IMG/VR virus record: IMGVR_UViG_3300037475_000122
Coordinates: 1 to 64,000 of that record
DNA length: 64,000 nucleotides
Direction: 5' to 3' (one strand)
Origin: a virus
Shown: piece by piece, positions 4,097-59,908 of the stretch
How positions within the stretch are numbered: the first letter of the stretch is position 1
How the letters are laid out: every line of letters starts with the position of its first letter
Made by a program: the position numbers and the translations under genes
The notes under the pieces: model-generated
Seen by the model: the letters and a program-made list of their open reading frames with translations, nothing else
What the model was told of the DNA's origin: nothing
Database searches by the model: none

Positions 4097-4377
4097 CTGT
4101 CACGCTTTCATATCTCAGCCGGATACTCGCCGCGCTTCCGTTGCCCAAGGCCATTGGAGAGAAGCGGGTGTTCGCGCTCACCGAGCCGCCAGTGCTGAAG
4201 CCCGGGCAGTCGCTCGAATTCGAGCCGTCGTCATTGAGTCTCGACGTAATGGTCGAAGCCGAGTGGGTCACCGACGAGAACTCCCACAACACTTTTTGTT
4301 TTTGGGTCATCGTCCCCCACAAGGAACTGAAGATTGCATTTGACTTCTGCGGCCATGGAGTGTATCGTCGGTCATGA
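4093..4377 (+). CDS. Hypothetical protein
   Basis: GTGA and ATGA coupling with neighbours. Confidence 0.55.
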   Translation: MTVTLSYLSRILAALPLPKAIGEKRVFALTEPPVLKPGQSLEFEPSSLSLDVMVEAEWVTDENSHNTFCFWVIVPHKELKIAFDFCGHGVYRRS

Positions 4378-5060
4378 ACATTCCCCGCGAAGTTTACGGT
4401 TACGTCCGAGTCAGTGGAAAAGCCCAACTCGACGGCGACGGATTCCCCCGGCAGAAGGAGGCCATTCTCGCTTTTTGTCAGTCGCGCGGCTGGCTGTGCA
4501 AACGGATTTTCGAGGAGCGCGCGGTGCCCGGCAAGACCGAGATGGAAGACCGGACGGCGTTCATGGAGATGCTTGCGCTGTGCGGCGGAGTGCTCCCGCA
4601 GACGATTGTTGTCGAGCGCGCCGACCGCGTCGCCCGTGACCTCATCGTCGGAGAAATGCTTTACCGGGAGTGCGCCGAGGCGGAGGTCGAAATCTATGCG
4701 GCCGACTCCGGGCACGAGATGGTCTTGGCCGACGTGGACCCGACGCGCAAGCTGATTCGACAAGTCCTCGGGGCGATGGCGGAGTGGAGCAAAAACGAAA
4801 TCGTCATCAAGACCCGCAAGGCCCGCGAACGCATCCGCGCGCAGACCGGCCGGTGCGAGGGTGCGAAACCTTTTTCCATGACCAACCCGAAGGAGTTCGC
4901 GGCGGTCCTTGACTGGATTCGCGTTTCCCGGGACCGGGGTGATTCGTTCCACGTCATCGCCCGGCAACTGAACACTATGAAATTTCAATCCCCCAAGGGC
5001 TGCAAGTGGGGGCCGTCCTACGTTTACAAGCTCTACACCAACCACCTGAAAAACAAATGA
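4374..5060 (+). CDS. Serine recombinase (resolvase/invertase family)
   Basis: YGYVRVS..Q catalytic motif; IVVERADRVARD; C-terminal IARQLN..G.KW recombinase-type DNA-binding segment. Confidence 0.9.
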   Translation: MNIPREVYGYVRVSGKAQLDGDGFPRQKEAILAFCQSRGWLCKRIFEERAVPGKTEMEDRTAFMEMLALCGGVLPQTIVVERADRVARDLIVGEMLYRECAEAEVEIYAADSGHEMVLADVDPTRKLIRQVLGAMAEWSKNEIVIKTRKARERIRAQTGRCEGAKPFSMTNPKEFAAVLDWIRVSRDRGDSFHVIARQLNTMKFQSPKGCKWGPSYVYKLYTNHLKNK

Positions 5061-5254
5061 AAGACCTCAAAGAAATCCTCGAAGACAACAAGATTCCCGC
5101 CGTCGAACGACTTCAGTCTCGTGCGCGGGCGATGAACGCGAAGAAGGTCCCCCCGACGTGTAAACGCTGCAACGGCAAGCGCCGCGTCATCCGCAAGGCC
5201 AGCCTGTTCCCCCGGGTCCCGGAGGTCGCAATCAAATGCGACGGCTGCGCTTGA
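5057..5254 (+). CDS. Small zinc-ribbon protein
   Basis: CKRC...CDGC; ATGA overlap with the recombinase stop. Confidence 0.6.
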   Translation: MKDLKEILEDNKIPAVERLQSRARAMNAKKVPPTCKRCNGKRRVIRKASLFPRVPEVAIKCDGCA

Positions 5255-5279
5255 CAAACCCTGCAAGGCGTGCAACCTT
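5251..5279 (+). promoter_or_regulatory. Putative late promoter driving the tRNA/ncRNA array
   Basis: TTGAC-N18-AACCTT; the -35 box contains the upstream TGA stop. Confidence 0.7.
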
Positions 5280-5469
5280 GTAGAGTAGTCAGACAACCCC
5301 GAAGCGACTAGACATGAACAACAAAAGCGCCAGCGGCATATCACGGAAGGAGGGTAATCCCATGAGGAACTAACCCCCGCCCCGATTGACGAACTTACTA
5401 TGAATTCTTAATCAGGAACTCAACGACGAGAAGCCTGTAGAAAGGAAGAGGGCATGAAGTCCTCCGTGC

Positions 5470-5544
5470 TGCGGGATAGAAAAGTGGTAATTTAGCGGCC
5501 TCATAAGCCGTCACGCGCAGGTTCGATTCCTGCTCCCGCAACCA
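5470..5544 (+). tRNA. tRNA-Met(CAT)
   Basis: TGCGGGA/TCCCGCA acceptor stem, GCGGC-CT CAT AA-GCCGT anticodon arm, GCAGG-TTCGATT-CCTGC T arm, encoded ACCA end. Confidence 0.9.
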
Positions 5545-5550
5545 ATTTTT

Positions 5551-5695
5551 TGGCGACGACTGAACGTAATGCCCCGATAGCTGAAACGCTAGGGGAGAGA
5601 CAACGCAAGATTTGGAAGTCGCCGAGCGGTAACGCCGGGTATGATTCCGCCCCGGCCCCGAGATACACGGGTGATTGTGTTCAATCGTTGTCTCA
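5551..5695 (+). ncRNA. Putative structured ncRNA with alternative or pseudoknotted pairings
   Basis: GGCGAC/GTCGCC, TGAACGTAAT/ATTGTGTTCA, GAGACAACG/CGTTGTCTC, a GCG-GTAA-CGC tetraloop and several hairpins; bounded by T tracts. Confidence 0.55.
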
Positions 5696-5708
5696 TTTTT
5701 GAATCAAT

Positions 5709-5778
5709 GCCGAAGGTCGGGGAGCATAGCCCCGGAGACCGCGTCAACGGTTTCTAGTGTAACAGTAGCACTGTCGGC
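5709..5778 (+). ncRNA. Circularly permuted tRNA-like element (YrlA/Y-RNA-like topology)
   Basis: GCCGA-AGGT-[CGGGG AGCATAG CCCCG]-[GAGACCG cgtcaa CGGTTTC]-TA-[GTGT AACAGTA GCAC]-TG-TCGGC. Confidence 0.65.
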
Positions 5779-5784
5779 GACTTT

Positions 5785-5862
5785 GGCCTTATCGTCTAGC
5801 GGTTAGGACATCGGCTCGCTATAGCCGAAAACCTTGGGTTCAAATCCCTTGTTAGGCCACCA
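5785..5862 (+). tRNA. Aberrant tRNA-like gene (Glu-like body, 8-nt anticodon loop)
   Basis: GGCCTTA/TTAGGCC plus ACCA; D arm GTCT AGCGGTTA GGAC; TCGGC-TCGCTATA-GCCGA; mismatched T stem around TTCAAAT. Confidence 0.65.
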
Positions 5863-5863
5863 A

Positions 5864-6054
5864 CTGTGCCCCGAGCGCGGGCCAATGACTGTGATGGGCG
5901 CGGATAAGACGGCGTCGTGCCGAATAAAACGCAGAAGTTGCAGAGCGCAAAGTCCGGCGACGGCTGGACGGTCCCTTGGCGACGGTTGAGGGATTAGACA
6001 CGGGGGAACGACCCCCACAACAGGCCGAACCTTACTAACACTGAGGCTCCGGCC
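5864..6054 (+). ncRNA. Putative multi-hairpin ncRNA
   Basis: Consecutive hairpins including GTCCGGC-GACG-GCTGGAC, TCCCTTGGC-GACG-GTTGAGGGA and GGCCG...CGGCC; no credible ORF. Confidence 0.45.
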
Positions 6055-6056
6055 AG

Positions 6057-6127
6057 AGAATCGTAGCTCAACGGTAGAGCAGCGGCCTTTTAAGCTGTTG
6101 ACGCGGGTTCGACTCCCGCCGATTCTC
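6057..6127 (+). tRNA. tRNA-Lys(TTT), CCA not encoded
   Basis: AGAATCG/CGATTCT acceptor stem, GCTC AACGGTA GAGC D arm, GCGGC-CT TTT AA-GCTGT anticodon arm, GCGGG TTCGACT CCCGC T arm. Confidence 0.88.
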
Positions 6128-6141
6128 GACTTTTAATTTTG

Positions 6142-6984
6142 ATGAAGACCGGGCTCTTGTGGAACACCTACGGCGGCGACCTTGAGTGGTTCCGCCACTC
6201 CGCGCGCAGTTACAAAAAATACGCTCGCGGATGGACCTTTGCGAAGTGCATCGTGCCCTCTTCCGCTTACGCCGATTTTCGTCAGCCGTGTGAGGAGAAC
6301 GGGATTTTCCTCGCGTCGTTTGATGAGTGGCCCGGCAAGGGTTTTAATCACCATCAGGCGATGCAATGTTGCGGGGATTTGCACTTCCCCGAGGCCGACG
6401 TGATTTTCCACGTTGACGCCGACTGCGTCTTTGCCAGCGAATGCACGCCGGACGATTGGCTCCCCGGCGGCAAGGTCCTCCTCCCCTTCACCGATTTCGT
6501 CCGCTTCCTCGACCGTCCGCTCGTCCCCGACGAGGAGAAGAACTTCATGGGATTCACCGGCCGGGCCATCGACTTCAATCGCGGGCAATACTTCTGGAAA
6601 TTCGCGAGCGACACGGCCCTCGGGTTCTCAGTCGAGCGCGAGACGATGGCGTGGATGCCCATCGCGCACGTCCGCGAAGTCTATGCGAAGACCCGCGAAA
6701 TCGTCGCCGCGCGCTTCGGAATTTCGTTCGAGGACTACGTGAAGTCGTGCCGCAATGAGTGGCCGCAGTCCTTCTGCGAGTTCAACACCCTCGGCGGCGT
6801 CGCCCACAAGTTTTTCGAGAACCGATACCACTGGCAGGACGTGACCGTTCAGGGCCATGCGTTCGCGGGCAAGGTCGTCCAGTGTTGGAGTCACGGCGGG
6901 TTTGACCTCCCGCACAATTTTGCGAAAGAGGTCGGCGGACATCAAACGCCGCGTCAGCTTTTTGAACGACTTGGAATTTTATGA
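6142..6984 (+). CDS. Putative GT-A fold glycosyltransferase (DUF6492-like)
   Basis: IFHVDADCVF DxD motif; FCEFNTLG motif. Confidence 0.65.
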   Translation: MKTGLLWNTYGGDLEWFRHSARSYKKYARGWTFAKCIVPSSAYADFRQPCEENGIFLASFDEWPGKGFNHHQAMQCCGDLHFPEADVIFHVDADCVFASECTPDDWLPGGKVLLPFTDFVRFLDRPLVPDEEKNFMGFTGRAIDFNRGQYFWKFASDTALGFSVERETMAWMPIAHVREVYAKTREIVAARFGISFEDYVKSCRNEWPQSFCEFNTLGGVAHKFFENRYHWQDVTVQGHAFAGKVVQCWSHGGFDLPHNFAKEVGGHQTPRQLFERLGIL

Positions 6985-59215: not shown

Positions 59216-59908
59216 TCAGGACTTGTCAAGTGCGGATTTCGGACTTTCGTCGTTCTCAACCGTGACCTTGAAACACTTTTTCGAGGCTTCGTGATAGATG
59301 ACGATTCCCTCGGGCTTCATGAAGCCGGGGGCGGCGAAGCTGCCATGGGCGACGAGCATTTCCAGCGAGCGGAATTGATTGCAGTCTTTGAAGTTTCCGC
59401 GCCAGAGCGTCGGGACGACATGACAGCAGGCCGGGCCGGGAATTCCAGTCTGCAAGTTCACAACACCCGGCGTTGAGGCGTCCGGAGGAACGGCGTTGAA
59501 GGTCGCAAAATCGCCCCAGCGGCCGACGTTGAAAAGCGAAAAGCGTTTCTCTTCGAGACCGTAGCGGCGCTGAATGCCCGCGCCCCACCACTCGCCGAAG
59601 TGACGACCAACGCCAAGCTTCACGAGTTCGGAGCGGTTCGCCTTGACCCACGCGGCAAATCCGGCGTTGTCGCCTTTGCCAAGAGTCAGCCAGCGATTGC
59701 GCGAACCGGCCATGACAATCAAGCCATCGCCGCCGCGAGACGGAACCGACGCGTCGTGGTCCACATTGCTGGGGTGCGACCAATCCCCGCTTTCGGAGAT
59801 GAGGATTTGCGCGTTCGTGCCGTCGATTTTTTCCGTGATGACGACCTCGCGATTGAGGCGCGCCATTTTCGGAAACTCGATGAAATCGAGGGGGCCTTGT
59901 TCGTTCAC
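59216..59908 (-). CDS. RNA ligase (Rnl2-like adenylation domain)
   Basis: ITEKIDGTNA (KxDG), GSRNR, FGEWWG, F.LFN, VVP, EGIV, FK. Confidence 0.8.
   Translation of the reverse strand: MNEQGPLDFIEFPKMARLNREVVITEKIDGTNAQILISESGDWSHPSNVDHDASVPSRGGDGLIVMAGSRNRWLTLGKGDNAGFAAWVKANRSELVKLGVGRHFGEWWGAGIQRRYGLEEKRFSLFNVGRWGDFATFNAVPPDASTPGVVNLQTGIPGPACCHVVPTLWRGNFKDCNQFRSLEMLVAHGSFAAPGFMKPEGIVIYHEASKKCFKVTVENDESPKSALDKS

Follow-up and report, generated by a model that had tools for sequence, protein, structure and literature searches.

The 64,000-nucleotide window analyzed here, positions 1 to 64,000 of IMG/VR record IMGVR_UViG_3300037475_000122 (a complete 74-kb virus genome), carries in a soil-phage tRNA cluster a 70-base element at 5709-5778 that is read as the gene for a stand-alone tRNA-body mimic, with a probability of roughly 55%. 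The element recurs, with covarying helices and a retained tRNA core, in scattered members of a group of related phages. Its modelled architecture is that of a tRNA body in rearranged order, with neither an anticodon loop nor a free acceptor end. In a first-pass annotation made from the sequence alone, the element had been described as a circularly permuted tRNA-like RNA resembling the YrlA Y RNAs. The parts of the element and their tRNA equivalents are as follows:

5709-5778, + strand: the whole element, 70 bases
5709..5713, + strand: 5' strand of the closing stem in the minimum free energy (MFE) fold, GCCGA, corresponding to the anticodon-stem 3' strand of a tRNA
5714..5717, + strand: junction AGGT, corresponding to the variable loop (positions 44-48) of a tRNA
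5718..5734, + strand: hairpin 1, the T-arm equivalent, with a 5-bp stem (CGGGG/CCCCG) and a 7-nt loop (AGCATAG)
5735..5754, + strand: hairpin 2, the closed acceptor-like stem, with 7 bp (GAGACCG/CGGTTTC) and the loop CGTCAA
5755..5756, + strand: dinucleotide TA, equivalent to U8 and R9 of a tRNA
5757..5771, + strand: hairpin 3, the D-arm equivalent, GTGT-AACAGTA-GCAC
5772..5773, + strand: linker TG, at the position-26 equivalent, a single base in most homologues
5774..5778, + strand: 3' strand of the closing stem in the MFE fold, TCGGC, corresponding to the anticodon-stem 5' strand of a tRNA

Every segment named in the first-pass annotation is as it was described there, except that the two bases TG (5772-5773) ahead of TCGGC had been overlooked. 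The MFE fold of the + strand of 5709-5778 is a four-way junction in which a 5-bp closing stem and three hairpins meet; it has an energy of -28.8 kcal/mol, makes up 54% of the ensemble and has a z score of -3.18, a value equalled by 2 of 200 shuffles. The minus strand is unremarkable (z -1.12), and the G-U pairs of the element exist on the + strand only.

Homologues were sought with three covariance models, the first built from two sequences and each then widened, and with pattern scans. The terminase of the phage has hundreds of relatives on ~70-kb contigs, and 80 terminase loci of relatives were fetched. Eight distinct versions of the element, 62-75 nt in size, were recovered from related ~70-kb phages; the member set is without the closest terminase relatives, P0001-P0005 (90-71% identity). 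Type A, with the loops AGCATAG in hairpin 1 and AACAGTA in hairpin 3, comprises the window copy and those of loci L006, L014, L082, and L209, the last of which was found at 55 bits by a model not trained on it. Type B (loops CTCGGAA and AAGGTA or AGAGTA) comprises L009 and L067, and type C consists of one candidate, L215 (genome G018). The window version recurs in L089 and in a DNA contig of sequencing run X2, and the L082 version is identical in L083, L084, and L087; the habitat seen for the element is soil DNA samples, and terminase matches in genome bins came from three unrelated phyla, on short contigs. When the RNA array of the window was compared with the 80 loci by blastn, only the tRNA-Met, the start of a neighboring gene for a 281-aa protein and, in L006, the element (81% identity) could be aligned; the element and the tRNA-Met are the sole parts of the 950-nt non-coding array that blastn can align to relatives with 57-64% terminase identity. 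A blastn search of 5250-6200 against GenBank phages returned tRNA matches only, exact-pattern scans for the middle hairpin and a pattern scan of genome contigs gave no match, and none was found when relatives were sought via the 281-aa neighbor and via the resolvase.

Covariation across related phages, which the first-pass annotation had named as a check on its proposal, is found. In the alignment of all eight versions (A9, n = 8), which like the others is model-based, MAFFT having misaligned types B and C, standard pairs fill 95% of the pair cells, against ~50% with the partners slid; compensatory changes occur at 13 of 21 pairs, and the covariation score is 0.62, compared with 0.17 for shuffles, none of 500 of which reached it. 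The compensatory pairs are spread over three helices (3 of 5 in the closing stem, 3 of 5 in hairpin 1, and all 7 model pairs in hairpin 2), while hairpin 3 is the most conserved part, its stem being fixed save for one change from G-C to G-U. The same picture is obtained from alignment A5 (without L215 and L209) and from alignment A8 (without L006 and L209).

The order of the parts was addressed by a rotation test, in which each of the four rotations of the junction had its end stem closed with the same artificial 7-nt loop and was submitted to ARAGORN (n = 6). Only the rotation that opens hairpin 2 was called as a tRNA, in four of six cases at default settings and in all six at relaxed settings; the native order and the other two rotations were never called on the given strand, even when relaxed, and the sole exception in the test was one reverse-strand call for L006 (hairpin 3 open, relaxed settings). 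The proposal that tRNA parts occur here in permuted order is thus borne out, as is the expectation that the de-permuted sequence would be recognized as a tRNA. The native element gave no ARAGORN call and no match to the Rfam tRNA model RF00005 at E up to 10, and is therefore not a canonical tRNA.

Positions that hold a tRNA together are retained throughout the family. U8, A14, G19, A21, and G46 are invariant in all eight homologues, the equivalent of position 9 is always A or G, and that of position 48 is always a pyrimidine. The Levitt pair 15:48, formed by the second base of the D-like loop and the last base of the junction, is A:U in six members, G:C in L067 (a covarying change) and U:U in one; pair 54:58 covaries, type A having A:U and type B having C:G; and seven of the eight have G:C at 19:56. 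The loop of hairpin 1 keeps C56 and R57 and is identical across all five type-A members. Selection keeps the tRNA core and elbow, and it is for this reason that the element is read as a stand-alone tRNA-body mimic.

Sequences of the same kind occur in tRNA and tRNA-like genes. The D-like 15-mer of the element lies inside ARAGORN-called tRNA-Gln, tRNA-Trp, and tRNA-Gly genes of other viral contigs, and near-identical D arms are present in the tRNA-Asn of L006 and in a CAU-anticodon tRNA-like sequence of L008 that was parsed by eye, with no tool call. T loops of the xGCAxxx type also occur at L082:4818-4890 (Rfam tRNA, 50.5 bits) and at L008:1108-1183 (a by-eye parse). The covariance models, moreover, match junctions between tandem tRNA genes, that is, the 3' half of one gene followed by the 5' half of the next; because a tandem junction gives the same arrangement, dimeric tRNAs are listed as look-alikes in YrlA searches (PMC4201824). 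The loss of the outer halves from a tandem tRNA duplicate would give exactly this element, with its acceptor strands and its anticodon-stem strands complementary, and, judging from these resemblances, the junction of two tandem phage tRNA copies that lost their outer halves is the most likely origin.

It could be argued that the element is nothing but what such an event leaves behind, a non-functional relic of two tandem tRNA genes, a reading with which the model matches to tandem junctions and the patchy distribution among relatives (below) agree. Yet a decaying relic would lose its pairing, whereas here compensatory changes are found in three helices, and loops and core are fixed, across phages with 47-64% terminase identity; pairing has been kept even though the surrounding non-coding DNA can no longer be aligned. 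A relic is consequently regarded as improbable.

The arrangement of parts has a counterpart in the YrlA RNAs (Rfam RF02553). In the YrlA effector domain, the T, closed-stem and D parts, with a tRNA core, fold as a close mimic of tRNA without a free CCA; the UA linker is kept, the acceptor-like stem is variable, and the partner is unknown (bioRxiv 10.1101/312249). All the features by which this tRNA-like domain is recognized (T stem-loop, closed acceptor-like stem, UA, D stem-loop, and tertiary core) are present in the phage element. The order (variable loop)-T-closed acceptor-like stem-UA-D is the same, the RNA ends likewise meet at the anticodon-stem position with no free CCA, and in both the core is kept (U8/A14/A21, the Levitt pair, pyrimidine 48, and the elbow), with an acceptor-like stem of variable sequence and length. 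The element differs from YrlA in lacking a Ro60-binding module, with nothing beyond its 4-5 bp closing stem and no conservation of GNCGAA; in the absence of an rsr/TROVE gene from the phage; in its size, 62-75 nt against a 114-position model; and in its T and D loops (AGCATAG and AACAGTA in type A), and the Rfam model is blind to it.

These differences bear on whether the element might be a true YrlA-type Y RNA that binds the Ro60/Rsr of the host and tethers it to an effector. In favor of this are the shared order, the UA linker, pyrimidine 48 and the Levitt pair, and the GCCGAAG start of the window and L006 copies; the earlier observation that GCCGAAGG fits the motif GNCGAAN0-1G is correct for the window copy. 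The motif is kept in these two of the eight members, however, and is absent from L014, L082, L209, L009, L067, and L215. The search with Infernal against the Rfam YrlA and tRNA models that had been suggested for the native element matched neither at E up to 10: RF02553 gave no match at 5709-5778, and its best match in the genome, over tRNA-Lys at 6076-6180, scored 13.1 bits against a gathering threshold of 69 bits. The remark that no Ro60 gene is visible in the window can be extended, in that TROVE (PF05731) is absent from the whole 74-kb genome and from the five other element-positive phage records, under a search that gave matches in control genomes. Published phage YrlAs, by contrast, lie within 4 kb of a phage rsr gene, and YrlAs have been defined as encoded within ~4 kb of an rsr/Ro60 (TROVE) gene on the same strand (PMC4201824). 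The closing stem is, furthermore, 4-5 bp long, with flanks that are not complementary and do not extend it, so that there is no Ro-binding helix. The "minimal Y RNA" of the first-pass annotation is therefore given up; the element is not a member of YrlA, and its service as a Y RNA to a host Ro60 is a rather distant prospect.

Permuted tRNA bodies are also known outside the Y RNAs. Circularly permuted tRNA genes, found in Cyanidioschyzon merolae, some green algae, and Thermofilum, yield real tRNAs: a bulge-helix-bulge splice forms the anticodon loop, and the 7-bp acceptor stem is opened and receives CCA. The element shares with these genes a 3' half placed upstream of the 5' half, a plausible origin by tandem duplication, and a de-permuted sequence that a tRNA finder recognizes as a cloverleaf; it differs in having no anticodon-loop sequence and in an acceptor helix that is variable and stays capped. 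To our knowledge, no processing machinery matching that of permuted tRNA genes is known in bacteria. Two-piece (circularly permuted) transfer-messenger RNA (tmRNA) genes of alpha-proteobacteria and cyanobacteria provide a bacterial precedent for a tRNA-like domain in permuted order; tmRNA carries a reading frame for a tag, together with pseudoknots and an acceptor end that can be charged, and ARAGORN found no two-piece permuted tmRNA in the window or in 15 genomes.

By analogy with the algal genes, the element might be the precursor of a functional tRNA, with its ends ligated into an anticodon loop and its acceptor loop opened, and the phage RNA ligase at 59216-59908 (minus strand) had been put forward as the enzyme that could join it. 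The gene does encode an RNA-ligase family protein (PF09414, E 4e-12; PHROG 548; no sequence match in the PDB), it is present in three of six element-positive records (G000, G003, and G005) and in none of 12 element-negative relatives, and the window copy has a 7-bp acceptor-like stem. The co-occurrence, as seen in sequence, amounts to a weak association, and the ligase is not required for the element, because two carriers, G001 (complete, with terminal repeats) and G004 (93% complete), have the element without it. The ligase gene is located in the replication module, beside a helicase and a PD-(D/E)XK nuclease, and its neighborhood holds no polynucleotide kinase-phosphatase and no other tRNA-repair partner. 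The acceptor-like stem is 7 bp long in the window copy only; the homologues have hairpin 2 stems of 4 to ~10 pairs and hairpin 2 loops of 3-7 nt, and in L209 a stem of 5 bp is capped by a GCAA tetraloop. The element has no encoded CCA and no conserved discriminator, the equivalent of position 33 is U in one of eight flanks, and no conserved 7-nt anticodon loop assembles. A ligase-joined tRNA is thus unlikely, and a precursor of functional tRNA in general is hardly credible; what survives of the first interpretation is the YrlA-like architecture and the tRNA-elbow mimic without an anticodon, while membership in the Y RNAs and the role of ligase substrate are dropped.

The element occurs once per genome. 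Thirteen of 15 other near-complete relatives, searched whole, lack it at E up to 0.01; the remaining two hold the accepted type-C member (G018) and a rejected weak match (L216, in G007), which keeps only the closing stem and the D-like arm and was left out of the family. On a quick terminase tree the carriers are scattered, with seven label changes and no clustering, and close relatives differ: G004 has the element and L010 is without it, and it is also missing from the near relative L003. On these comparisons, the distribution is that of an accessory cassette in a variable region. Among the open reading frames (ORFs) of the window, no protein tracks the element across genomes by being shared by carriers and absent from non-carriers; this makes a host factor or a core phage protein the probable partner of the element.

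The position of the element relative to its neighbors bears on two further explanations. The features next to it in the window are:

4374-5060: resolvase-family (serine recombinase) gene, near the element
5470..5544, + strand: tRNA-Met (CAT), the upstream neighbor, found by ARAGORN and, at 62 bits, by the Rfam tRNA model
5785..5859, + strand: aberrant tRNA with an 8-nt anticodon loop, 38.6 bits with the Rfam tRNA model, without an ARAGORN call
6056..6128, + strand: tRNA-Lys (TTT), the last gene of the RNA array, found by ARAGORN and Rfam

The element lies in a stretch of ~890 nt without a credible gene, from the end of a small zinc-ribbon ORF at 5254 to the start of the 281-aa ORF at 6139, and the aberrant tRNA starts 6 nt 3' of it. 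Six of eight loci have the element between the serine-recombinase region and the terminase gene, in a count that leaves out L209 and in which the L215/G018 element sits elsewhere in its genome; the usual neighbors are tRNA genes and, downstream, one to three paralogues of the 281-aa gene. This placement, together with an element in L082 that abuts the recombinase stop codon, might suggest a site acting at the level of DNA, such as one at which the serine recombinase recombines DNA or, upstream of the terminase gene, one that signals packaging. Against such a site stand the confinement of the G-U pairs to the + strand and the lack of a significant minus-strand fold, the different context in G018, and covariation in combination with conserved loops and a tRNA core, which is the pattern of an RNA; the probability of a DNA-level site is accordingly very small.

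The main rival to the mimic is a cis-acting role, in which the tRNA-shaped fold would serve as a processing, stability, or regulatory module by recruiting RNase P, RNase Z, or other tRNA-processing enzymes, or by blocking exonucleases; it would thus punctuate or stabilize the mRNAs and tRNAs beside it and have no action in trans. In three lineages (L082, L009, and L067) the element starts 0-12 nt past a stop codon, with the following start codon 19 nt downstream in the case of L082; the next tRNA is 6 nt downstream in the window, the 3' end of a tRNA-like sequence is 10 nt upstream in L014, and U-rich tracts follow the element in most members. A precedent for cleavage is the YrlA of M. smegmatis, which has a 7-bp closed acceptor stem, as does the window copy, and is cut by RNase P (PMC4201824). 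In the phage family, however, the acceptor-like stem has no fixed length of 7 bp (it has 4 to ~10 pairs, and its 3-4 nt loops include GCAA), and RNase P cutting is therefore not a property of the whole family; the ordinary tRNAs of the same arrays already provide punctuation, and the strict conservation of loops and core suggests a specific partner. A cis-acting module is for these reasons a possible explanation, if not a likely one.

The stand-alone tRNA-body mimic would act as follows. The element would be the gene for a small + strand RNA that folds into an L-shaped tRNA body from rearranged parts, in the order anticodon-stem 3' strand, variable loop, T arm, closed acceptor-like helix, U8-R9, D arm, and anticodon-stem 5' strand. 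This RNA would be freed from the transcript of the tRNA array through the processing of its neighbors, and the 3' end of the element may be set by RNase P cutting at the 5' end of the aberrant tRNA (5785-5859). Lacking both an anticodon loop and a free CCA end, it cannot decode; it would instead occupy or recruit a factor, most likely from the host, that reads the elbow or core of tRNA, and would do so without being consumed as a tRNA. The "tRNA-elbow decoy" without an anticodon that had been offered as one of several interpretations is retained to this extent, as a tRNA-body mimic with an invariant core.

Small stable RNAs are also found in the tRNA cluster of phage T4, where species 1 and 2 (rnaC/rnaD), whose function is unknown, are released by tRNA-processing enzymes. 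They resemble the element in being small RNAs other than tRNAs within a phage tRNA array; unlike it, they are larger and are not permuted tRNA bodies, and they have no sequence or model similarity to it.

Several points weigh against the mimic. The family comprises only eight sequences, and their alignment is fitted to the model, which inflates the pair counts; the type-C member (L215/G018) is in a different genomic context and may have an independent origin; and the type-A T loop, AGCATAG, departs from the canonical TPsiCRA, for which reason the elbow geometry is treated here as predicted. A search of sequencing runs, in addition, gave one RNA-library contig in the region, at 5910-6084, which does not cover the element; small shares of matches in other sequencing runs were tRNA-like matches. 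The RNA-library contig itself (174 nt, from soil metatranscriptome run X9, with one 1-nt deletion) corresponds to the spacer between the aberrant tRNA and tRNA-Lys together with the 5' part of tRNA-Lys, and may reflect DNA carry-over.

A full-text literature search retrieved no description of any phage that lacks Ro60 and has a permuted tRNA-like RNA, and the element is absent from Rfam. A bolder and quite tentative proposal, to which low confidence is attached, is that these elements constitute the first family of stand-alone, Ro60-independent permuted tRNA mimics: accessory decoys or inhibitors that, being neither cleavable nor chargeable, would engage a host reader of the tRNA body (such as an immune nuclease that targets tRNA, or some other protein or RNA that binds the elbow), beside rescue tRNAs in a hypervariable counter-defense locus. 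The main current view of phage tRNA arrays is that they supply spare parts against defenses that cleave tRNA; a conserved array RNA reduced to the tRNA body would be a tool of another kind, one that mimics and does not decode. The partner of the tRNA-like domain in YrlA has been unknown since 2014, and a natural YrlA-like domain without a Ro60 module would be a simpler bait for binders of such a fold. The family would also be an example, from bacterial viruses, of a tandem tRNA junction that became a new structured RNA.

The aberrant tRNA downstream of the element (5785-5859) encodes CCA, and the 5-bp helix of its anticodon stem, TCGGC/GCCGA, recurs in the element as the closing stem; judged by sequence, this identity could reflect alternative pairing between the two or could be due to chance. 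In L014, a tRNA-like sequence at 1100-1176 lies directly upstream of the element and was called neither by ARAGORN nor by Rfam at its gathering threshold; present in it are acceptor strands, an 8-bp stem whose loop is CTGTAAA (the form of a GTA anticodon), a long variable region, and a T arm of canonical form (GGTTCGACTCC), and a clear D arm was not seen. The tRNA and tRNA-like genes of this phage family (L082:4818-4890, L008:1108-1183, and L006:743-815) are often without the GG of the D loop (AACAGTA, AAAAGTA), have T loops such as TGCAACT and TGCAATT, and in several cases are missed by ARAGORN.

Three other candidates were examined and rejected as members of the family. L090 shares the hairpin-1 sequence and is a mere hairpin after a stop codon, and in L006:705-773 and L008:1028-1134 the 5' half of a tRNA comes after a hairpin or a tRNA. 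Within the former, L006:705-742 is a 7-bp hairpin with the loop AACGGAA, just 5' of tRNA-Asn, that resembles hairpin 1 of the element; this hairpin and the tRNA 5' half together give a weak model match (23-28 bits).

The 281-aa protein encoded at 6139-6984 of the window resembles DUF6492 clusters (Atlas feature score 0.97) and has no Pfam hit. Between the RNA array and the terminase gene it is encoded by one to three paralogues in tandem, with paralogues in L006, L009, L014, and L067; it is present in some relatives only, and in none of 10 element-negative genomes compared. On the 3' side of the type-B elements is a near-identical non-coding region of ~150 nt (L009:1697-1850 and L067:1205-1358), with two predicted long-range helices (consensus -57 kcal/mol) and no Rfam match, the copies being too alike for covariation; a related hairpin follows the element in L209.
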